Positions 53,346-63,968 of a DNA stretch of 64,000 bases are shown piece after piece (within the stretch, counting starts at the first letter, position 1; every line of letters starts with the position of its first letter). The DNA lies in assembly GCA_964235815.1 (NCBI GenBank), contig CAXSCF010000001.1, forward strand, positions 26,313 through 90,312. Direction: 5' to 3'. The stretch is from an uncultured Sphingomicrobium sp. GTDB taxonomy: Bacteria; Pseudomonadota; Alphaproteobacteria; Sphingomonadales; Sphingomonadaceae. The position numbers and the translations under genes were made by a program. Below the pieces are notes generated by a model. The model searched no databases. It was not told the origin of the DNA and worked only from the letters and a program-made list of their open reading frames with translations.

Positions 53346-54488
53346 CTAAGCGAGCGCTTTCTCGTACACCCGATACCGATGATTGATCACCGCGCCGGGC
53401 AATTCGGCGATCGACATCATCCCCTGATTGTCCTCGAGCACCCACCCGAACTCGCCCTGTTTGACGCCATAATTCTCGACACACGCGCGGCGGATATATT
53501 CGATCAATGTGTAGGCGATCTGCCCCCCAAGCCGAGTCCCGTGAAGTCGCTTGGTTACCCCCATCAGCGGGACGCGCACCCGGCTCACCTTGGGCTTGCG
53601 CAGGCGCCACAGCAATTTGACGAACCCGAAAGGGAACAGCTCACCGTCCAGATCGCGGATCATCTCGTTGATGTCGGGGATGGTCAGCATGAAGCCAACC
53701 GGCTCGCCGTCGAGCTCGGCGATCCGCACCAGGTCTTCGAAGATGATCGGCTTCAACTTCTTGCCGGCATAAGCGATTTCGGCGTCGGTCAAGGGCACGA
53801 ATCCCCAATTGTCCGACCAGGCATCGTTGAGCAGATTGAGGATGATTCCCGAATCGCGCGCAAACTTCGCCTTGTCGACGGTACGAATGCGGATCCGCGG
53901 ATTGCGCTCGGTCGCGGCGACCATGCGATTGATCAGCTCGGGCTGGTCCTTGGCGATGTCGAGGTCGTAGGTGACGAGGTCCTTGGCCTTGGCATAGCCC
54001 GCCGCCTCGATCCACGCCCGATAGGCCGGGCGATGATGCCCCATCATCGCCGTCGGGGGCTGGTCGAAGCCCTCGATCAGCAGCCCCGGCTCGTCCCAGA
54101 TCGAGATCGAGATCGGCCCCATCGCGGTGCTCATCCGTTGGTCGCGAAGCCATCCCTCGGCGGCCGCGATTAGGGCGGCTGCGGCCTCGGCGTCGAGCGC
54201 TTCGAACAGGCCCCATTGGCCAAGGCCCGTTTGCATGTATTCCTGCACCAGCGAGTCGACCTGGGCGCTGATCCGGCCGACGATGCGCCCGTCGCGCTCG
54301 GCAACGAACAGCGCCGCGCGGCCATGGCCGAACCACGGGTTCTTCTTGGGGTCGATCAGCCCGTGGACCTCGTCCTTGAGCGGGGGAACCCACATCGGGT
54401 CGTCCTTGTATACGTGCCAGGCAAAGTCGACGAAGGCGCGGCGCTCGGCTTTGGTCGTGACGGGGCGGATCGTAAGGCTGCGGTTCAT
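53346..54488 (-). CDS. GNAT-like acyltransferase family protein (380 aa)
   Basis: LTIRPVTTKAERRAFVDFAWHVYKDDPMWVPPLKDEV...LFVAERDGRIVGRISAQVD, a family usually annotated as N-acetyltransferase. The function is unproven. Confidence 0.6.
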   Translation of the reverse strand: MNRSLTIRPVTTKAERRAFVDFAWHVYKDDPMWVPPLKDEVHGLIDPKKNPWFGHGRAALFVAERDGRIVGRISAQVDSLVQEYMQTGLGQWGLFEALDAEAAAALIAAAEGWLRDQRMSTAMGPISISIWDEPGLLIEGFDQPPTAMMGHHRPAYRAWIEAAGYAKAKDLVTYDLDIAKDQPELINRMVAATERNPRIRIRTVDKAKFARDSGIILNLLNDAWSDNWGFVPLTDAEIAYAGKKLKPIIFEDLVRIAELDGEPVGFMLTIPDINEMIRDLDGELFPFGFVKLLWRLRKPKVSRVRVPLMGVTKRLHGTRLGGQIAYTLIEYIRRACVENYGVKQGEFGWVLEDNQGMMSIAELPGAVINHRYRVYEKALA

Positions 54489-54510
54489 GCGTCATGGGCT
54501 AGCGAGATAG

Positions 54511-55701
54511 GTGGCTCTTGTCACGCGCCGCGCGGCGCTCCCAAGAGCGCCATCGTCATGCCACAGTCGCACGGCAATCGGCCATTTCGCACAAGAGGTT
54601 ACGATCATTTTCGAAACGTCGACCACGCCCGCCGCTCCAGCCCCGGACACGGCTCCTGCGCCGCTCAAGGCGCAGTGCAACGACAAGGCGATGCTGCGCG
54701 CCGCGGCGGACGTGACGCGCGACCTCAACGTGCCCTCGGCGCGGACTTACTGGACCGACTTCCTCGCCTCGGCGGCGGTGGGCTATGCCGCGCTGGCGCT
54801 GGCCGCGATGACCCCTAGCGGGCTAGTCATGATCGTTGCCGGGCTAGTCAGCATCGTCGGCCTGTTCCGCGCCGGCAGCTTCATCCACGAACTGACCCAC
54901 ATCAAGAAGGGCGAACTGCGGGGCTTCAAGCTCGGCTGGAACCTCATCGCCGGGGTGCCGTTGCTGATCCCATCGTTCCTCTATGAAGGGATCCACAACC
55001 TTCACCATGCCAAGATCCGCTACGGCACGGTCGAAGATCCCGAATATCTTCCGCTCGCGCTGATGAAGCCGTGGACGCTGCCGGTGTTCCTGGTCGCCGC
55101 GACGCTGGCCCCGCTCGCCTTGATGTTCCGCTTTGCCGTGCTCGCGCCGCTGTCGCTGCTCGTCCCGCGCCTGCGCACTTTGGTCGTCGAACGTTATTCG
55201 GGACTCCAGATCAACCCCCACTTCCGCCGCAAGCCGGCCGAGGGCGAGTTGGCCCGCCAGTGGCGCTGGCAGGAAGCCGCGGCGAGCGTGTGGGCCATCA
55301 CCTTGATCGCGCTGGTCGCGACGGGGCTTGTCTCGCTCCACGTTTTTGCCGTGTTCCTGGCGATCACCGCCGGCACGATGCTGCTCAACCAGACGCGCAC
55401 GCTGGTCGCGCATTTGTGGGAAAATGACGGCGAGCCGCTGAGCGTGACCGAACAGTTCCTCGACAGCGTCAACGTCCCGCCGCCCGGCCCGATGGCCGAG
55501 TTCTGGGCGCCGGTGGGCTTGCGCTATCACGCGCTGCACCACCTCCTGCCGGGATTGCCCTATCACGCGCTGCCGACCGCGCATCGCCGGATCAAGGCTG
55601 CGCTGGCGTCCGATTCGGCCTACCACGGGGCCAATTATGGTGGGTTGTTGCCGCTTGTCAGACGGCTGGCGGCAGCGTCGTGGCGCGGACGACCCGCCTG
55701 A
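54511..55701 (+). CDS. Membrane fatty acid desaturase family protein
   Basis: Three His boxes: HELTH, HNLHH, HALHH. The listed start is a GTG only 22 nt from the divergent GNAT start; the ATG at 54691 is a plausible true start. Confidence 0.75.
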   Translation: MALVTRRAALPRAPSSCHSRTAIGHFAQEVTIIFETSTTPAAPAPDTAPAPLKAQCNDKAMLRAAADVTRDLNVPSARTYWTDFLASAAVGYAALALAAMTPSGLVMIVAGLVSIVGLFRAGSFIHELTHIKKGELRGFKLGWNLIAGVPLLIPSFLYEGIHNLHHAKIRYGTVEDPEYLPLALMKPWTLPVFLVAATLAPLALMFRFAVLAPLSLLVPRLRTLVVERYSGLQINPHFRRKPAEGELARQWRWQEAAASVWAITLIALVATGLVSLHVFAVFLAITAGTMLLNQTRTLVAHLWENDGEPLSVTEQFLDSVNVPPPGPMAEFWAPVGLRYHALHHLLPGLPYHALPTAHRRIKAALASDSAYHGANYGGLLPLVRRLAAASWRGRPA

Positions 55702-55704
55702 AGC

Positions 55705-56802
55705 TCATTCTTCCGAGCGGACCAGCACCATCTCGCCGATGAACAAAAACAGCAGGAACGGCGCCCACGCCGCCAGCAGCGGCGGATAGGCCCCGACATT
55801 GCCCAGCGCCAGGCTCAGGCTATCGACCAGGAAATAGGTGAAGCCCAGCGCCATTCCGATCGCGGCGCGGATCAGCACCTGACCCGATCGCGCCAGCCCG
55901 AACGCGGCCAGGCCGGCGAGCAACGGCATCAGCGTGATCGACAGGGGGCCACTGATCTTGTGCCACCATCCGCTGCGCGCCGTCGCCGACGGACGCCCCG
56001 CGCGATCGAGGTCGGTAATCGCCTGTTCGAGCGAGTTGAAGTCCTGGCTTGTGGCGTTGATTTTGGCGAGCGTGAAGCGCGTCGCTTCAACGCCGTTCAG
56101 CGTGTCGAGGATCGGCTGCTTGCGCACGACATTCATCGCGGTGTCGTACGTCCGTGCGTTAAACAATCGCCAACCGCCCGGTCGCTGGCGGGCAAGGGGC
56201 GCATCGATCAATCCTTCAAGCGCTCCGCCGCTGCGCTGATAGATGGTCACTCCCTCCAACCGCACCTTCGCGCCGCGCCCGGCGACCAGCCGGACGTGGA
56301 CCAATTGCTCGCCGTCGCGCGCCCAGACATTACTGAGCACTCCACTGTCGGGCGGGATCGGCTTGTAATCGGCACCCGTCCAGGCGTCGGCCGTGCGCGA
56401 GGCGCGGACCACCACCGTTTCGTTGAAGGCAAAGGCGATCAAGGCCACGGCGATACTGGCGAGGATCATCGGCGCGAGTATCTGGTGCGCCGACAGTCCC
56501 GCCGCCTTCATCGCCACCACTTCGCTATTCTGATTGAGACTGGTGAGGGCGATCAGCGTGCCGAGCAGTATCGCGAACGGCAGAAAGCGCGATGCGAGCA
56601 TCGGAACGCGCAACCCGACATAGCGCCACAGCTCGGGTTCGCCATTGCCGGGGACGGCAAGAATCTTGCCCGATTCGCCCAGCAGGTCGAGCGCCATCAG
56701 CACCATCACGAGCATGATCAGCACGGCGAAGCTACGGCTCGCGAACAGCCGCGCCATGTAGATCGCGATCCGCCGCGAAGGGAGGAAGTTGAAACCGGTC
56801 AT
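55705..56802 (-). CDS. lptG: LPS export ABC transporter permease LptG
   Basis: YjgP/YjgQ permease pattern (LPSRRIAIYMARLF...). The internal ATG overlaps the lptF stop (ATGA). Confidence 0.8.
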   Translation of the reverse strand: MTGFNFLPSRRIAIYMARLFASRSFAVLIMLVMVLMALDLLGESGKILAVPGNGEPELWRYVGLRVPMLASRFLPFAILLGTLIALTSLNQNSEVVAMKAAGLSAHQILAPMILASIAVALIAFAFNETVVVRASRTADAWTGADYKPIPPDSGVLSNVWARDGEQLVHVRLVAGRGAKVRLEGVTIYQRSGGALEGLIDAPLARQRPGGWRLFNARTYDTAMNVVRKQPILDTLNGVEATRFTLAKINATSQDFNSLEQAITDLDRAGRPSATARSGWWHKISGPLSITLMPLLAGLAAFGLARSGQVLIRAAIGMALGFTYFLVDSLSLALGNVGAYPPLLAAWAPFLLFLFIGEMVLVRSEE

Positions 56803-58040
56803 GCCACGGTTGCGCCGCGCAGCCGGCGGCGTGGACGCAGCTTGCCGATCCACTTGCCAAGCGTGGCAAAGGCGGCCTCGAGCGCGCCGATCGGTTGACC
56901 GCCGGGACGGTGGGCGATGACGTGGTACATCCAGCCGATCAAAGCGACGAAGGCAAGAAACGGCAACCACAGCGCCAGTTCAGGGATCAGGCGCCCCTGC
57001 GCGCCCGCGCTTTCGGCATATTGATTGATCTTGTGATAGGTCACGACCATCACGATCGCGATGAAGATGCCGAGCCCCGACGACGATCGCTTGGGTGGCA
57101 CCGCGAGCGCGATGGCAAGCAATGGCAGCATCAACATCATCACCACTTCGACCAGCCGGTAATGGAGGTTGGCGCGCGCCTCGAGATTATCATGCACGCT
57201 GACCCTGGCTGCGGCGGCACCATAAGCGCGTGAGCTGATCTCCATCAGGTTCAACTCCTCGCGATCGCTGCCGCGGCCGCGAAACGGGTCGATCGAGGGC
57301 AAGTTGATCGGCATGTCGTAGCTGTCGAAGGCCAACGTGCGCGGGGTAGTAAATTTGGGGCTGTCCTGCACTAACCGGCCTTTCTTGAGCCGAAAGATGA
57401 TCGTGTCGGGATCGCCGGTCGACAGGAACTGACCGCTTTGCGCGCTCGCCGCGATGCGCATCCCGTTCGTGTCTTCGAGCGCGGTGAAGATGCCGCCGAG
57501 ACTGGTGCCCTTCTTTTCGCTGCGATCGATCCTCAGCGTCATGTGCTTGCCCATGGTGTTGAACTCGCCGACCTTGATCGCCGCGCCGAGCGCGCCCGAA
57601 CGCAGGTCGAACCGCAACCCTTCGTAGCGGTAGCGCGAATAGGGCTCGATCCAGCCGACGATTGCGATGTTGAGCAGCAGCAAGCCGACGGCGAAGGCGT
57701 AGGGCACGCGCAGCAAGCGACCATAACCGATCCCGATGCCGCGCAGCGCGTCGAGCTCGGACGACAGCGCGAGCTTGCGAAAGGCGAGCAGGATGCCAAG
57801 CAGCAGCCCGATCGGGATGCCCAACGCGAAATATTCGGGGAGCAGATTTGCGAGCATCCGCCAGACCACGCTGACCGGCCCGCCGGCATCGATCACGAAA
57901 TCGAACAGGCGCACGATCTTGTCGAGCACCAGCAGCATCGCCGCCAGCAGAAGCGTTCCTAGCAACGGAACGGTGATGCTTCGCGCCAAATATCGGTCGA
58001 TCAGGGCAAGCCGTCCCACGTTTCGTCGTCCCTGCACCAT
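56799..58040 (-). CDS. lptF: LPS export ABC transporter permease LptF
   Basis: LIDRYLARSITVPLLGTLLL... YjgP/YjgQ family. I use the internal ATG at 58040, and a later GTG start is possible. Confidence 0.8.
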   Translation of the reverse strand: MVQGRRNVGRLALIDRYLARSITVPLLGTLLLAAMLLVLDKIVRLFDFVIDAGGPVSVVWRMLANLLPEYFALGIPIGLLLGILLAFRKLALSSELDALRGIGIGYGRLLRVPYAFAVGLLLLNIAIVGWIEPYSRYRYEGLRFDLRSGALGAAIKVGEFNTMGKHMTLRIDRSEKKGTSLGGIFTALEDTNGMRIAASAQSGQFLSTGDPDTIIFRLKKGRLVQDSPKFTTPRTLAFDSYDMPINLPSIDPFRGRGSDREELNLMEISSRAYGAAAARVSVHDNLEARANLHYRLVEVVMMLMLPLLAIALAVPPKRSSSGLGIFIAIVMVVTYHKINQYAESAGAQGRLIPELALWLPFLAFVALIGWMYHVIAHRPGGQPIGALEAAFATLGKWIGKLRPRRRLRGATVA

Positions 58041-58129
58041 GATTTGGCCGCAAACGGGCCCGACATACACTGTGACGGCGACTCCCGCAGAATGGGGGGC
58101 GGAGACACCGGAACTTCGGCTGTAGCAGA

Positions 58130-58651
58130 ATGGACATGGATTTCATGCGCAAATCTCGCTCTCCCCTGGCTTTCGGGGCCACGCTCGTCGCGCTCGGCCT
58201 TGCCCAGCCCGCGGCTGCGGTCATCGTCGGCGCGGACGCGGCCGTCTGTGCCGCGGGCAAGCCGGCCCTGCTTGTCCGCGTCGCCGGGCTGCAGCGGCCG
58301 ACTGGCTCGCTCAAATTGTCGGTCTATGGCAATAATCCGTCGGTCTATCTCAAGAAGGAGGGGCGCCTGCGCCGGATCAAGGTGCCGGTCAGCAGCCGCG
58401 GCCCGATCGACGTTTGTATCGCAGTGCCCGGTGCGGGTCGCTACGCCGTCGCGGTCCATCACGACCTCAACGGCAATGGCGACAAGGATCGCCACGACGG
58501 TGGCGGCTATTCGAACAACCCGCGCGTTTCGTTGATGAACATGCGGCCTGCCTTTGCGCGGACGGCAGTGTCCGTCGGCCGTTCGCCGACCCGCACCGAA
58601 GTCCACTTGCTCTATGTCCACGGCCTGTCGGTGGGGCCTGCGCAAAGCTGA
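58130..58651 (+). CDS. DUF2141 domain secreted protein
   Basis: Signal peptide (MRKSRSPLAFGATLVALGLAQPAAA). The HHDLNGNGDKD motif is typical of DUF2141. Confidence 0.65.
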   Translation: MDMDFMRKSRSPLAFGATLVALGLAQPAAAVIVGADAAVCAAGKPALLVRVAGLQRPTGSLKLSVYGNNPSVYLKKEGRLRRIKVPVSSRGPIDVCIAVPGAGRYAVAVHHDLNGNGDKDRHDGGGYSNNPRVSLMNMRPAFARTAVSVGRSPTRTEVHLLYVHGLSVGPAQS

Positions 58652-59625
58652 TGAAGCGACCGAGGATCGCCTTGCTGTCGAACCCCAAGTCGACCGGAAA
58701 TATCGCCCAGCTGCCGCGGATTCGCGCCTTTTGCGCCGATCACATCGATATTTTCCATTATGAGGTCGAGCGCGCTAACCAGATCGGCGAAGCGATGGCG
58801 ACGATCGCCCGCGTCCAGCCCAAATTGCTGGTCATCAACGGCGGCGACGGCACTGTCCAGGCGGCGCTGACCGAGCTCTACAATGGCGGTCACTTCGGCG
58901 CCTCGCCGCCCCCCGTCGCGGTACTGCCAAGCGGCAAGACCAACCTCATCGCGCTTGATCTGGGCGCCGGGGGAGATCCGGTGGTGGCGCTTGGGCGACT
59001 GCTCGAACTCGCCCAGAGCGACCTTGCCCCGCACATTGTCCCGCGCGAACTGATCGCGCTGTCGGGCGGAATGGACGGGATCAAGCCGGTCATTGGCATG
59101 TTCCTCGGCGGAGCTGGCCTTGCCGACATCATGCTTTACTGCCGCAACCGAATTTACCCGCTCGGATTGCCCAATTCGATCAGCCATATCATTACCGCAA
59201 TCGCCGTCGTGCTGGGTCAGGTGTTTCGCATGCGCGCCAGCTTCCTTCCGCCCGAGCCGGCGCACCTCAGCGTCTCCTTGCGCCGGGAGGGAGCGATGCG
59301 AGGCCGTTTCTCGTTGCTGTTTGTCACGACCCTCGAAAAAGTCCTGCTGTCGAGTGACGTCGGCTCACACCACAGCGGCTCGCTCAAGTTCGTCGCGGTT
59401 GAGCAGCGGTCGGGGTCGTTGCTGCGCGCCTTTGGAGCAAGCCTTTTCGGACGCCTCGGCAAAACCAAGATGGCGGGCGTTCACGTCGAGGAAGCCGATG
59501 AAATCTCGATCGAGGGCGAAGGCAGCGACGTGATCCTCGACGGTGAAACGTTCCGCGCGGGTATCGGCAAGCCCATCCTGCTTCGCTCGGCGCTGCCACT
59601 GTCGTTCGTGCGCCTCGCCGCCTGA
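58651..59625 (+). CDS. Diacylglycerol-kinase-fold lipid kinase (YegS/BmrU-like)
   Basis: LLVINGGDGTVQ and LPSGKTNLIA catalytic-domain motifs. The start overlaps the DUF2141 stop (TGATG). Confidence 0.7.
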   Translation: MKRPRIALLSNPKSTGNIAQLPRIRAFCADHIDIFHYEVERANQIGEAMATIARVQPKLLVINGGDGTVQAALTELYNGGHFGASPPPVAVLPSGKTNLIALDLGAGGDPVVALGRLLELAQSDLAPHIVPRELIALSGGMDGIKPVIGMFLGGAGLADIMLYCRNRIYPLGLPNSISHIITAIAVVLGQVFRMRASFLPPEPAHLSVSLRREGAMRGRFSLLFVTTLEKVLLSSDVGSHHSGSLKFVAVEQRSGSLLRAFGASLFGRLGKTKMAGVHVEEADEISIEGEGSDVILDGETFRAGIGKPILLRSALPLSFVRLAA

Positions 59626-59627
59626 CG

Positions 59628-60488
59628 ATGACGACGATCGAGGCGCTCGTCGCCGATGAACTGGCACAACCGGTCGATCCACGCGTCGCGGCGATGGCCA
59701 GGGCGGTGGCGGCGCGGCACGGCGCGGCGAGCCGCGCGGTGCTGTTCTACGGATCCTGCCTGCGGGAACGGCAACTCGACGGGTTGATGCTCGATTTCTA
59801 TTTGATCGTGTCGGACTATCGCAGCGCCTATGACAAGCCGTGGCTGGCGCGCGCCAATGCGCTGATCCCGCCCAATGTCTTTCCTTTCGAGCACGCCGGT
59901 CTGGCTGCCAAATATGCCGTCCTCAGCGAAGCCGACTTTGCGCGCCTCAATCGGCCGGAAACGCGCAACGTGTCGGTGTGGGCGCGCTTCGCCCAGCCGT
60001 CGCGACTGGTGTGGGCCGCCGACGACAAGGCGCGCCATGCAACCGTGGCCTCGGTCGCGCGCGCCGCGCCGACCCTGCTCGCCGCGGCCGGGCGGATCGC
60101 GGGGGAAGCGCCGCTCGACTGGTGGCGGCGGGCCTTTTCGCTTACCTATTCGGCCGAGCTTCGCGCCGAACGCAAGACCCGCGCCGGATCGGTCGTCGAT
60201 CAGGACCGCGCCCGCTACGAACGCTTTTCGCAAGCTGCCATCGCCGCCATTTGCCCCACTGCCTCGAGCGGGGGTTGGGGGCGCCGGCGGATCGAGGGCA
60301 AATTGCTATCGGTTGTGCGTCTCGCCAAAGCCAGCGCGACCTACGCCGGGGGCGCCGAGTACATCGTGTGGAAGATCAATCGCCACGCCGGGACCGATTT
60401 CGTGCTTAAGCCGTGGCAGCGGCGCCATCCCTTGCTCGGCGCGCTCAGCCTGTTGCCGCGGCTCCTGAAATCGGGTGCGATCCGCTAG
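59628..60488 (+). CDS. Tam41/Mmp37-like nucleotidyltransferase-fold protein (tentative)
   Basis: VLFYGSCLRE..LDFYLIVSDY...NVFPFEHAGLAAKYAVLSEADFARL...WARFAQPSRLV is colinear with my memory of the Tam41 motifs (GYGSGV, DLILVV, YFNPF..IKYGVV, LYLAGRLQKPV). It starts 2 nt after the kinase stop. Confidence 0.45.
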   Translation: MTTIEALVADELAQPVDPRVAAMARAVAARHGAASRAVLFYGSCLRERQLDGLMLDFYLIVSDYRSAYDKPWLARANALIPPNVFPFEHAGLAAKYAVLSEADFARLNRPETRNVSVWARFAQPSRLVWAADDKARHATVASVARAAPTLLAAAGRIAGEAPLDWWRRAFSLTYSAELRAERKTRAGSVVDQDRARYERFSQAAIAAICPTASSGGWGRRRIEGKLLSVVRLAKASATYAGGAEYIVWKINRHAGTDFVLKPWQRRHPLLGALSLLPRLLKSGAIR

Positions 60489-62427
60489 ATCCGCGCGCCA
60501 AGGCCCCGGCCACCGAGGATGCCAGCGCGGCGACCGTGAAGGGCTTGCGGAGCAGTTCATGCCCGACCAGATCGTCGCTGTCGCCATCCCCGACGAAGCC
60601 GGTAACGAACAGGACCGCGATGTCGGGGCGCCGGGCCCGCAACTCCCGGATCAGCTCCGGTCCGGTCATTTCGGGCATGATCACGTCGGACACGACGAGC
60701 TCGAAATCGGCTGCGGCGAACAACCGCATCGCTTCCGCCCCGCTGGAGCAGCTGACCGGGTCATAGCCCAGATCCTCAAGCGCTCCGACGGTCGCGGTCC
60801 GCACGCGCGGATCATCCTCGACCAGCAGGATCCGCGCTCCGGGAACGGTGATGTCGGCTTCCTGGCGCTGCGCTGCAGGATGCAGGCGGACGTTGGTCGC
60901 GGCTTCGGCGGTGCGCGGCAGATAGATTGATACGGTCGTGCCCTTGCCCGGACGACTGTCGATCCCGACCTCGCCCCCTGACTGGTGCGCGAAGCCGAAG
61001 ATCTGGCTCAGCCCCAGCCCGGTGCCCTTGCCGACGGCCTTGGTGGTAAAGAAAGGCTCGAACGCGCGGTCGATAACTTCCCGACTCATTCCGCAACCGC
61101 TGTCGCTTACCGAAATGCGAAGATAATCGCCCGGCTGAATGTCCCCGACGGCGTTGGCGGTGACCGTCTCGTTGGCGGTCGAGATTGTCAATTCACCCTC
61201 GCCATCCATCGCGTCACGGCCATTGACCGCAAGGTTGAGAATGGCATTCTCGAGCTGGTGCATGTCAACGAATACCGGCCATGCGGCAGGGTCGAGCACG
61301 GTGCGCACTTCGACCCGCTCGCCCAGCGTTCGGTCGAGCAACTCGCTCATGCCGCCGACCAGTTGCGCGCTGTCGACGCATTCGGGAAGCAGGGGCTCGG
61401 ACCGCGCGAAGGACAGTAAGCGGCGGGTCAGCGCCGCGGCGCGCGTGGCGCCTTCCATCGCGTTGGTGAGGTGGATCATCACTTCGCTGCGCGGGCCGTT
61501 GAGCCGCCGCCGGGCGAGATCGATCCCGCCGACGACCACGGCCAGCATATTGTTGAAGTCGTGCGCGATGCCCCCGGTCAACTGGCCAACGGCTTCCATC
61601 TTCTGAACCTGGCGCAGCTGGGCTTCGGCGGCGTGGCGTTCGACCGCTTCGGCCTTTAGCGCAAGGTTGGCGTCGCTCAGTTCGCGGGTGCGATCGGCGA
61701 CCGCCTGCTCAAGCACCTGCGAGCGTTCGGCTTCGCTGTCCGCCTCGCGCCGCGCGATCGCGTTGAGGCGCAGGGCCTGGACCGCGACCGCGCCGAGAAA
61801 CACCGCCATCGCCCCGACGATCACCCCCAGCCAGCTTAGATAATCGCTCAATTTATCGGCGCGAGCGGCAAAGAAACGAGTCCGCTGCATTCGCTCGTTG
61901 AGAACCAGTCGCTCGCCTTCGGCAATATCGCTCAGGACACGCCGCACTGCGGGCCCGGTCGGCGACTGCGCCGCGGCGTAATAATAGCCCGTGCCTCCGG
62001 CGCCGCGCCCGGCGACCGTGGCTCGCGCGGCGAGCGCAAATTCTTCGCCACGCTGGCGATACAATTGTTGCAGTCGGATCAGCCGATCGCTTTGCGACGG
62101 CTCGTCGTGAAGCAATTTGCCCAGATCGAAGATTTGCTGCCCGGCTAGGCGCCACTGCGAATAATAGATGTTGCCACTGGTCTTGACCTGCTCGTCAAGC
62201 ACGAACCGCCCGAGCGCGGCTTCGGCCCGCGACACGCTGGCATCGAGCGAGCGGGTCAGCAAGGTCACTTCATAAGCGTGGCGCTCGCCATCGAGCGCTT
62301 CGTCGCGGGCATCGTTCGATGCCGCCACCAGGAACACCATGCCGAGCAAAATAAGCGCGGCAAGCAGCGCCCCGGCGGCCGCCCCGCCACCGCGCCAGTC
62401 AAAGCGCCGATCTTCCCCTGCGGTCAT
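60445..62427 (-). CDS. Hybrid sensor histidine kinase/response regulator with a CHASE3-like sensor region
   Basis: Two TM segments flank a ~170-aa sensor, followed by a coiled coil, the H-box GGIAHDFNNML, an HATPase domain (GTGLGLS) and a C-terminal receiver (ILLVEDD...). Confidence 0.85.
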   Translation of the reverse strand: MTAGEDRRFDWRGGGAAAGALLAALILLGMVFLVAASNDARDEALDGERHAYEVTLLTRSLDASVSRAEAALGRFVLDEQVKTSGNIYYSQWRLAGQQIFDLGKLLHDEPSQSDRLIRLQQLYRQRGEEFALAARATVAGRGAGGTGYYYAAAQSPTGPAVRRVLSDIAEGERLVLNERMQRTRFFAARADKLSDYLSWLGVIVGAMAVFLGAVAVQALRLNAIARREADSEAERSQVLEQAVADRTRELSDANLALKAEAVERHAAEAQLRQVQKMEAVGQLTGGIAHDFNNMLAVVVGGIDLARRRLNGPRSEVMIHLTNAMEGATRAAALTRRLLSFARSEPLLPECVDSAQLVGGMSELLDRTLGERVEVRTVLDPAAWPVFVDMHQLENAILNLAVNGRDAMDGEGELTISTANETVTANAVGDIQPGDYLRISVSDSGCGMSREVIDRAFEPFFTTKAVGKGTGLGLSQIFGFAHQSGGEVGIDSRPGKGTTVSIYLPRTAEAATNVRLHPAAQRQEADITVPGARILLVEDDPRVRTATVGALEDLGYDPVSCSSGAEAMRLFAAADFELVVSDVIMPEMTGPELIRELRARRPDIAVLFVTGFVGDGDSDDLVGHELLRKPFTVAALASSVAGALARGSSGSHPISGAAATG

Positions 62428-62445: not shown

Positions 62446-63708
62446 TCACCCGGCGAGCGAAACCCCGTTCGTCGAAGGGATGCAGCCGGTCGCGCGACCC
62501 GCCGCCTCGAACATCGTCAGAATCTGGCGGACCTGCTCGGCATCGTGCTCGGCACAGAGCGAGCAACGCAGCAGGGTCATGTTGCCCGGTGTCGCCGGCG
62601 GCCGCGCCAAGTTCACGTACAATCCCTCCTGAAGCAGCGCTTCCCACATCGCCGCCCCGGTCTCGAGGTCGGGCACGAGCACCGCGATGATCGCCGATTG
62701 CGGGGTCTCGGTGCCGAGCGTGAAGCCGAGCGCCTTCAGTCCGCGATGAAGCGTCTTGCTATTTTCCCACAGATGCGCGCGCTTGTCCGCGCCGTCCATC
62801 AGCTTGCGGATCGAGGTCGCCGCGGTCGCCACGACCGACGGCGGCAGCGAGGCGGTGAACACGTACGGCCGGCACACCAGCCGCAAAATCTCGAACTTGG
62901 GATGGTTCGAGACGCAGAAACCGCCGACCGTCCCGACCGACTTCGAAAAAGTGCCGATGATGAAGTCGACGTCGTCGATCACCCCCTGCGCCTCGGCCAC
63001 GCCGCGGCCATGCTCGCCGATGAAGCCCATCGAATGCGCCTCGTCGACCAGCACCATCGCCCCCGCCGCCTTGGCCACCGCGACCATTTCCTTCAACGGC
63101 GCGATGTCGCCGAGCATCGAATAGACTCCCTCGAGGATGACCAAAGTCTTGGCGCCTTCGGGAATGCGCTTGAGGCGCTTCTCGAGCGCGTCGATGTCAT
63201 TGTGGCGGAACGGCACGATATTGGCATTGCCGAGCGCGCAGCCGTCGTAGATCGAGGCGTGGCTGTCGATGTCGAGGACGATATAATCGTCCTTGCCGGC
63301 GATGGTCGAGATGATCCCGAGGTTGGCCTGATAGCCGGTCGAGAAGACCATCGCATGGTCCATGTCGTAGAACGTCTTGAGCGCTTCCTCGCACGCTTTG
63401 TGCCCGGCGTAGGTGCCATTGAGCACGCGGCTCCCCGTCGTTCCCGCGCCATAGTCGTCGAGCGCCTGCTTGCCCGCCGCGATGACCTCGGGGTCGAAGG
63501 TCATGCCCATGTAATTGTAGGTGCCGAGCAGGATCGTCCGCTGCCCGTTGCAGATCGCCACGGTCGGGCTTTCGACGCGCTCCATGACGAGGTTAAAGGG
63601 GTCGGTCAGCCCGGTCGATAGCAGGCTCTCGCGCTGCGCGATAAGGCCGTCGAACTTGGAGAAAAGATCCCCGCCCGCCACTTCGCCGGGGGCGCCGCCG
63701 TCGGTCAT
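62446..63708 (-). CDS. spt: Serine palmitoyltransferase
   Basis: 420 aa from the internal ATG. LLGTYNYMGMTFDP...FSTGY.ANLGIIST..GK..Y..LD.DSHASIYDGC...VLEGVYSMLGDIAPLKEMVAVAK..GAMVLVDEAHSMGF..GTFSKSVGTVGGF is nearly colinear with the Sphingomonas paucimobilis SPT as I remember it. Confidence 0.9.
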   Translation of the reverse strand: MTDGGAPGEVAGGDLFSKFDGLIAQRESLLSTGLTDPFNLVMERVESPTVAICNGQRTILLGTYNYMGMTFDPEVIAAGKQALDDYGAGTTGSRVLNGTYAGHKACEEALKTFYDMDHAMVFSTGYQANLGIISTIAGKDDYIVLDIDSHASIYDGCALGNANIVPFRHNDIDALEKRLKRIPEGAKTLVILEGVYSMLGDIAPLKEMVAVAKAAGAMVLVDEAHSMGFIGEHGRGVAEAQGVIDDVDFIIGTFSKSVGTVGGFCVSNHPKFEILRLVCRPYVFTASLPPSVVATAATSIRKLMDGADKRAHLWENSKTLHRGLKALGFTLGTETPQSAIIAVLVPDLETGAAMWEALLQEGLYVNLARPPATPGNMTLLRCSLCAEHDAEQVRQILTMFEAAGRATGCIPSTNGVSLAG

Positions 63709-63725
63709 GGCCAGTCCGGGGTCGG

Positions 63726-63968
63726 TCACGCCGTCATCTTCTCGACCGCGTCGACCAACTGTCCGACCGTCTCGATCTCGGCTTGCTGGTTCATGGTGAT
63801 CAGGATGTCGAACTCGTCCTCGATCGTGGCGACGAAATCGAGCACGGTCAGGCTGTCCCACTCAAGGTCCTGGGCAAAGCGCGTGTCGTCGCCGACGTCG
63901 ACGCCGTTCTTGTTGAACGGTTCGATGAGGGCTTTCACTCGGTCGTCGGTGGCGGCGCGTGTGGTCAT
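63726..63968 (-). CDS. Acyl carrier protein (sphingolipid-associated)
   Basis: 80 aa with the phosphopantetheine site LEWDSLTVLDF, ending 17 nt upstream of spt. The first ATG is at 63968; the listed ORF starts at a TTG at 63974. Confidence 0.8.
   Translation of the reverse strand: MTTRAATDDRVKALIEPFNKNGVDVGDDTRFAQDLEWDSLTVLDFVATIEDEFDILITMNQQAEIETVGQLVDAVEKMTA

Follow-up and report, generated by a model that had tools for sequence, protein, structure and literature searches.

The locus examined here raises the question of what is encoded by two adjacent, divergently transcribed genes, one for a 380-aa GNAT-like protein on the minus strand and the other for a membrane enzyme of the PF00487 family on the plus strand. 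Both lie in a 64,000-nucleotide stretch of DNA from an uncultured Sphingomicrobium sp. (GenBank assembly GCA_964235815.1, contig CAXSCF010000001.1), and the window, as used below, means the whole of this stretch. The assembly behind the window is small, high in G+C and of sphingomonad type (2.25 Mb, 140 contigs, 90.5% complete), with the character of a metagenome-assembled genome (MAG); the nearest named homologs come from Sphingomicrobium and Sphingomonas. The original prediction, made from the sequence alone, had proposed a ceramide synthase and a sphingolipid desaturase/hydroxylase, encoded by two open reading frames (ORFs) whose longest forms are separated by 22 nt (54489-54510), and both ORFs are present as it described them.

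We consider it highly probable that the products of this pair carry out two successive steps in the formation of bacterial ceramide and that both genes are transcribed from a common divergent control region. In the pathway that we propose, (i) the 380-aa protein, a soluble or peripheral ceramide synthase (CerS) of the cytoplasm, would transfer an acyl chain from an activated donor to the amino group of the serine palmitoyltransferase (Spt) product, either 3-ketosphinganine or sphinganine, yielding (oxidised) dihydroceramide, and (ii) the PF00487 enzyme, an O2-dependent di-iron enzyme, would place a hydroxyl on the amide-linked acyl chain of the ceramide, which in sphingomonads would give a 2-hydroxy acyl chain. 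The assignment of cerS in sphingomonads is already in the literature (PMC11324152), and the finding, correct as it is, is mostly already known and represents no new kind of biology. It does correct the annotation, in that the labels 'N-acetyltransferase', 'dATP pyrophosphohydrolase' and 'fatty acid desaturase' give way to two defined steps on the bacterial route to ceramide, and its interest stems from a displacement pattern beside cerS and from a lost start codon.

The ceramide synthase ortholog

Domain profiles assign the 380-aa protein to no family: Pfam returned only a sub-threshold match to Acetyltransf_1 (E 0.0046, 17.7 bits vs a cut-off of 20.7 bits), NCBIfam gave no match, and PDB sequence searches retrieved no relative for either this protein or the PF00487 enzyme. 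Full-length homologs of the protein, each ~380 aa long, nevertheless number in the thousands. Its end-to-end identity with WP_268067076.1, which NCBI names 'ceramide synthase [Caulobacter sp. SL161]', is 41% (381 aa; E 9e-94), and the reverse search with the SL161 protein against the window genome gave the 380-aa gene as its sole match (E 2.1e-86), so that the two proteins are reciprocal best hits. The 380-aa gene is also single copy in the window genome. In SL161, the best match to the 380-aa protein is the gene directly downstream of an lptG paralog, and SL161 proteins share 90% clusters with proteins of C. vibrioides NA1000. The Caulobacter proteins were reached via the family of a Caulobacteraceae MAG, a PF00487 search in five genomes of that family, and exact cluster look-ups; a contig profile scan with a 12-sequence alignment returned only Sphingomonadales-like loci and no Caulobacter. 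For S. wittichii, Swit_3908 has been listed as the CerS ortholog of CC_1154, with 45% identity (PMC11324152, S2B).

An AlphaFold model of the 380-aa protein, built on 52 homologs, is an alpha/beta tandem GNAT throughout (predicted local distance difference test score, pLDDT, 96). Foldseek matched it to 2wpw (a clavulanate tandem GNAT; E 7e-15), to 7q3a (MAB_4324; E 1e-14) and also to mycothiol synthase MshD, which bears out the GNAT-like nature that had been read from the sequence. No long hydrophobic helix is evident in the secondary-structure map, which was read without a dedicated transmembrane predictor. In the Caulobacter literature, ceramide synthase is a cytoplasmic, peripherally membrane-bound N-acyltransferase that acylates the Spt product before the periplasmic reduction by CerR.

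The protein thus combines full-length reciprocal-best-hit homology, the GNAT fold and an association with spt, cerR and acpR, and a cerS gene was found in 146 of the 151 genomes that we sampled from the order. Judged by its sequence, the 380-aa protein is an ortholog of the characterised bacterial ceramide synthase, and the Caulobacter literature predicts N-acylation as its activity. With the Caulobacter enzyme (CCNA_01212, identical to CC_1154) it shares a length of ~380 aa, the tandem-GNAT fold, the lack of a Pfam family of its own, a place adjoining lptG2/lptF2, and a position within ~8 kb of spt. The two loci differ in the surroundings of cerS: in Caulobacter, cerS is the next gene downstream of lptG2 and has the same orientation, whereas in the window and in most Sphingomonadaceae the divergent hydroxylase gene is inserted between them.

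Sphingomonas sp. PAMC 26605 has two cerS copies on different scaffolds (L017 and L047), whose products are 61% and 55% identical to the window protein, and the hydroxylase gene adjoins only one of them. A MAG labelled 'Caulobacteraceae bacterium' (L053/G001) holds a contig with a sphingomonad-type cerS (57% identity) as well as a Caulobacter-type fragment (44%), which suggests that it contains a mis-binned contig.

The PF00487 enzyme and its probable role in ceramide hydroxylation

The plus-strand protein matches FA_desaturase (PF00487; E 3.8e-27) in Pfam, is encoded by the only PF00487 gene of the genome, and in NCBIfam has only a far sub-threshold match to GntB. The three His boxes named in the original prediction, HELTH, HNLHH and HALHH, are all present. 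Their eight canonical histidines (H95/H99, H131/H134/H135 and H309/H312/H313) show no variation among 37 aligned orthologs, and H270, H321 and H327 are likewise invariant there. An alignment with ACL93669.1 of C. vibrioides NA1000 spans the whole catalytic body (347 aa) at 48% identity (E 1e-104), with identical boxes (HExxH, HNxHH and HALHH) and the same three additional histidines; searching the window genome in reverse with ACL93669.1 gave a single match (E 2.7e-96), again a reciprocal best hit. ACL93669.1 carries the UniRef name 'Ceramide hydroxylase' and shares a 90% cluster with AAK22189.1 of strain CB15, which is annotated as 'hypothetical protein CC_0202'. Caulobacter genomes contain two unrelated types of PF00487 protein, of which the ~351-aa type is 46-48% identical to the window protein and the ~315-aa type has no meaningful similarity to it (E > 0.003). 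We considered whether CC_0202 might be the short (~315 aa), DesA-like type and rejected this, even though that type sits at about 216 kb in SL161, as CC_0202 groups in the cluster look-up with the 351-aa type, the one that the window enzyme matches.

In Caulobacter sphingolipids, hydroxylation of the amide-linked acyl residue is attributed to CC_0202 (CCNA_00202), the loss of which leads to colistin resistance (PMC11324152). The model of the window enzyme (pLDDT 87) shows a desaturase/AlkB-like membrane fold, for which Foldseek returned the desaturase-like chains 8xks_K and 8xqw_M and AlkB 8f6t. With a reciprocal best hit, three His boxes in the expected fold and an occurrence that goes with the ceramide pathway, the PF00487 enzyme is, on sequence grounds, an ortholog of the Caulobacter ceramide hydroxylase CCNA_00202 (CC_0202), and its most likely reaction is hydroxylation of the amide-linked acyl chain. 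Of the desaturase/hydroxylase alternative that had been left open in the original prediction, the hydroxylase half is therefore favoured and the desaturase half disfavoured. The genomic settings of the two orthologs differ, since in C. crescentus the hydroxylase gene is far from the sphingolipid cluster (in SL161, ~1 Mb from cerS), whereas in the window it has a promoter region in common with cerS.

The coupling of the two genes was assessed in 80 cerS loci from named genomes, almost all of them Sphingomonadales. The hydroxylase gene adjoins cerS divergently in 50 of these loci. In the sample of the order, 117 of the 151 genomes encode the hydroxylase, and 114 of these 117 also encode cerS; the three that do not are all at most 85% complete. 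Within a second family of the order, the two genes adjoin on the same strand (e.g., G447, G509 and G484), so that cerS and the hydroxylase gene remain neighbours across families in spite of their different orientations. Among the Caulobacteraceae, the hydroxylase occurs in 5 of 61 genomes, all five of them cerS-positive, and in none of the 46 cerS-negative genomes. The tallies for the Caulobacteraceae and for the PF00487 searches include three unpublished genomes (G027, G281 and G391), on which no specific claim rests.

In 13 of the 80 loci, a different gene, of ~260 aa and belonging to PF04116 (FA_hydroxylase, E about 1e-20), stands just upstream of cerS and on the same strand as cerS; in a 14th it lies elsewhere within the locus. 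Examples are L070:9155-9928 (+), L018:5063-5839, L046:8995-9789, L067:5200-5988 and L029:1146-1919. The only significant solved relative of its product is yeast Scs7p (E 1.5e-7), the ceramide very-long-chain fatty-acid hydroxylase. Like the PF00487 enzyme, Scs7p/FA2H (PF04116) is a membrane di-iron, His-box, O2-dependent enzyme that acts on the ceramide acyl chain, whereas its family and fold are unrelated, so that the likeness is one of analogy and not of homology.

None of the 80 loci contains both a PF00487 and a PF04116 gene. At the level of genomes, five with the PF04116 gene in the cerS locus had no PF00487 enzyme; five with the PF00487 enzyme had no PF04116 gene of the cerS-adjacent type; and in all three complete genomes of the window's family without the PF00487 enzyme, the PF04116 gene is the immediate neighbour of cerS. 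Eleven further genomes with neither gene beside cerS comprised four with PF00487 only, three with PF04116 only, one with both, and three with neither. The window genome has no ortholog of the cerS-adjacent PF04116 gene and holds the PF00487 enzyme only, which brings the total to 25 genomes (10 PF00487 only, 11 PF04116 only, 1 both and 3 neither). We therefore dropped the notion that the two hydroxylase types are strictly mutually exclusive. Even so, a largely complementary pattern with a known family of ceramide 2-hydroxylases favours hydroxylation over desaturation, and it is the best argument available on this point. In the literature searched, we found no description of the placement of the hydroxylase beside cerS or of its alternation with an Scs7-type enzyme. 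Taken as alternative partners of cerS, the CerH-type (PF00487) and Scs7-type enzymes furnish a testable prediction on the origin of the 2-hydroxy acyl chains of sphingomonads.

2-Hydroxy fatty acids are known from sphingomonad sphingolipids, and 2-hydroxy acyl chains mark the outer-membrane glycosphingolipids of these bacteria; from this, together with the complementary Scs7-like hydroxylase, we infer C2 as the position of hydroxylation. Sphingomonad glycosphingolipids can also carry unsaturated long-chain bases. This, along with the preponderance of desaturases in the Pfam family and the return of only desaturase-like and AlkB-like chains in the fold search, speaks for a true desaturase, with either the long-chain base or the N-acyl chain as its substrate. 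We regard such a desaturase as unlikely, since (i) the Caulobacter ortholog is reported to be necessary for the hydroxyl of the amide-linked acyl chain, (ii) the enzyme and an Scs7/FA2H-type hydroxylase of the same locus have largely complementary distributions, and (iii) no alternative 2-hydroxylase of the P450 type was found in the genome. The enzyme is not a desaturase of the eukaryotic delta4 type (DEGS), since it has no Lipid_DES domain; Pfam reported PF00487 only, and the N-terminus is a short disordered tail. As for P450, the enzyme P450SPalpha (CYP152B1) of Sphingomonas paucimobilis is likewise a proposed source of sphingomonad 2-hydroxy fatty acids (review PMC10002949). CYP152B1, however, is a soluble, H2O2-dependent haem enzyme that acts on free fatty acids, and no member of the P450 family (PF00067) was detected in the window genome, so that a fatty-acid 2-hydroxylase of the CYP152 type is not available there as an alternative to the PF00487 hydroxylase.

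The divergent control region and the start of the hydroxylase gene

The public gene call places the start of the hydroxylase at the ATG at 54691, and the original prediction had argued for the same codon from the short gap between the longest ORFs. This start fared poorly. The 'DD' that lies two to three residues before the Met at 54691 is conserved among orthologs; several orthologs, including that of Caulobacter, have a Leu or Ile at the position of this Met, and the annotated Caulobacter protein starts nine residues earlier. Moreover, in a DNA alignment with eight related loci, the ATG start of the relatives falls on window positions 54601-54603, where the window reads ACG, followed by ATC (54604) and ATT (54607). 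Judged from these alignments, the 54691 ATG is doubtful as the ancestral start. At this site the window sequence TTACGATC aligns with TTATGACC or TTATGAAC in L003, L012, L007 and L077, and a Shine-Dalgarno-like AAGAGG (54593-54598) lies ahead of the ACG, with a similar site in the relatives. No ATG, GTG or TTG occurs in frame between 54511 and 54691.

Upstream of the hydroxylase gene, many relatives carry the element GCCACTATCTC, which includes a -10-like CTATCT, and several loci have a -35-like CTGTAA 17 nt upstream of it. The window copy of this element is degenerate (GCCACAGTCGC at 54560-54570, with 3 of 11 positions changed), and the position of the -35-like box reads AAGAGC. The GTG at 54511, with which the longest ORF begins, is an unlikely start, as the conserved promoter-like element of the GCCACTATCTC type is located downstream of it.

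The N-terminal tail of the window enzyme differs from that of CCNA_00202, in addition to the loss of the relatives' start codon. In the model, residues before about position 27 (numbered from 54604) are disordered, and a protein starting at the 54691 ATG would accordingly lose little structure. Near-cognate initiation within 54601-54609, initiation at 54691, reduced expression, or an error in the assembly consensus may each account for these features, and the hydroxylase may be expressed weakly or differently in the window genome.

The same features bear on the notion that the gene is silent or decaying, in which case the organism would make non-hydroxylated ceramide. In support of it stand the mutated start codon and promoter elements, that is, the ACG in place of the relatives' ATG, the 3 of 11 changed positions in the GCCACTATCTC element, and the AAGAGC where a -35-like CTGTAA would be expected. 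We nonetheless hold it to be improbable, because the ORF is intact and keeps all 68 invariant columns of the alignment, every His ligand included, at 68% identity to its nearest relative and with no frameshifts or stops. Furthermore, usable starts remain (the ATC and ATT behind AAGAGG, the ATG at 54691 and the GTG at 54511), a shorter protein could stay active, as the residues before ~27 are predicted to be disordered, and an error in the consensus of a metagenome assembly is possible.

With the alternation beside cerS in mind, we tentatively propose, at slightly less than even confidence, that the neighbour of cerS across the Sphingomonadaceae is a hydroxylase of either the CerH type (PF00487) or the Scs7/FA2H type (PF04116), brought about by non-orthologous displacement, and that the window hydroxylase may start at the ACG, ATC or ATT. 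If this is true, the acyl chain of ceramide would receive the same 2-hydroxyl group from either enzyme, and the textbook P450 route would not be the physiological source of this group.

Several points weigh against our reading of the pair. For ceramide synthase, the Caulobacter protein compared was that of Caulobacter sp. SL161, which is closely related to C. vibrioides, in place of NA1000 ACL94677.1 (CCNA_01212) itself. The hydroxylase assignment rests on a secondary citation and on a UniRef name; the PF00487 family includes both desaturases and hydroxylases, and the regiochemistry is not settled by sequence. The alternation with the Scs7-like gene has exceptions, namely the one genome with both genes and the three with neither among the 25. 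In the control region, the ancestral ATG has become ACG and the -10-like element is altered at 3 of its 11 positions, and the assembly itself is 90.5% complete and MAG-like.

The surrounding sphingolipid cluster

The features of the locus are collected in Table 1. As the original prediction had stated, spt lies ~8 kb from cerS, on the far side of the lptFG genes, with lptG, lptF, a DUF2141 gene, a DAGK_cat kinase, a 286-aa ORF and a hybrid histidine kinase in between. Just beyond the end of the window, on the same contig (L118), are ORFs for a PP-binding small acyl carrier protein and an Epimerase-family reductase, corresponding to acpR and cerR.

Table 1. Features of the ceramide gene pair and its neighbours, in window coordinates
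Feature	Position	Strand	Basis
cerS/bcerS ortholog, 380-aa tandem-GNAT, predicted N-acyltransferase	53346-54488	-	SL161 homology, single copy, model
Divergent intergenic/regulatory region	54489-54603	no strand	DNA alignment with 8 related loci; motif scan (50 loci); direct reading
Hydroxylase longest ORF, 396 aa	54511-55701	+	ORF list
ACG codon, site of the ATG start of close relatives	54601-54603	+	DNA alignment
Ceramide acyl-chain hydroxylase ortholog (cerH-type), PF00487 membrane di-iron enzyme	54604-55701	+	ACL93669.1 homology, His boxes, model
Hydroxylase public gene call, 336 aa	starts 54691	+	Public annotation
lptG-like permease (LptG2 of the Caulobacter cluster)	55705-56970	-	PF03739 E 2.5e-63; 27% identity to the SL161 gene adjoining cerS
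lptF-like permease (LptF2 counterpart)	56799-58070	-	PF03739 E 5.1e-59; Caulobacter cluster comparison
DUF2141 gene between lptF and the ceramide-kinase-like gene	58130-58651	+	
DAGK_cat lipid kinase, CC_1160 (ceramide kinase) counterpart	58414-59625	+	PF00781 E 2.5e-13; tblastn from the Caulobacter cluster matches 58663-59562
CC_1161-like gene, 286 aa	59628-60488	+	38% identity, E 9e-40, to the SL161 gene between kinase and spt
Hybrid histidine kinase (HisKA, HATPase_c, receiver)	60445-62427	-	Between spt and the CC_1161-like gene
spt, serine palmitoyltransferase	62446-63861	-	PF00155 E 2.4e-52; 52% identity to Caulobacter Spt

For S. wittichii, Geiger and co-workers give the order cerR (Swit_3897), acpR (3899), spt (3900), 3902, 3903, lptF2 (3905) and lptG2 (3906), followed by an unlisted gene (3907) and then by cerS (Swit_3908) (PMC11324152, S2B). 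The contig reproduces this Swit_3897-3908 order gene for gene, and the placement of the GNAT gene, which had been likened to that of bCerS in the Caulobacter locus, is indeed syntenic with the published clusters. That the 380-aa protein is instead a generic N-acetyltransferase unrelated to sphingolipids, as its database names ('N-acetyltransferase' and 'dATP pyrophosphohydrolase') and its below-threshold Pfam GNAT match might suggest, is very improbable in view of its single-copy, reciprocal-best-hit orthology to the Caulobacter ceramide synthase, its kept position in the spt/cerR/acpR/lptFG cluster, and its near-universal occurrence in the order. The window thus documents a small sphingomonad genome with a compact, nearly complete sphingolipid cluster.

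Between the lptFG genes and spt, the original prediction had counted three kinases. The DAGK_cat kinase and the histidine kinase stand, and the 286-aa ORF is no kinase: it is a CC_1161-like gene that has no Pfam match and that would act in phosphosphingolipid synthesis, in the step following the kinase. The DUF2141 ORF overlaps the longest ORF of the DAGK_cat kinase, which is why the kinase probably starts near 58650, later than 58414; a DUF2141 gene is kept at this position between lptF and the kinase in most sphingomonad loci (33-54% identity). The hybrid histidine kinase has no counterpart in the Caulobacter cluster. Its position is kept in many Sphingomonas-type loci (41-81% identity; e.g., L003, L007, L012, L013 and L019), and it may regulate sphingolipid synthesis.

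A tblastn search of the whole 90.5%-complete genome found no second copy of lptF or lptG, so that the sole LptFG pair of the genome lies within the sphingolipid cluster, whereas in Caulobacter the LptF2/G2 of the cluster are a second LptFG copy. Outside the window, the same assembly (G000) holds further counterparts of Caulobacter genes for phosphosphingolipids, with a CC_1152-like gene at C25:8222-8944 and CC_1153-like and CC_1159-like genes that adjoin each other at C68:8029-9881. With these genes present elsewhere, the window genome appears, from its gene content, to be equipped for lipids of the ceramide phosphoglycerate type.

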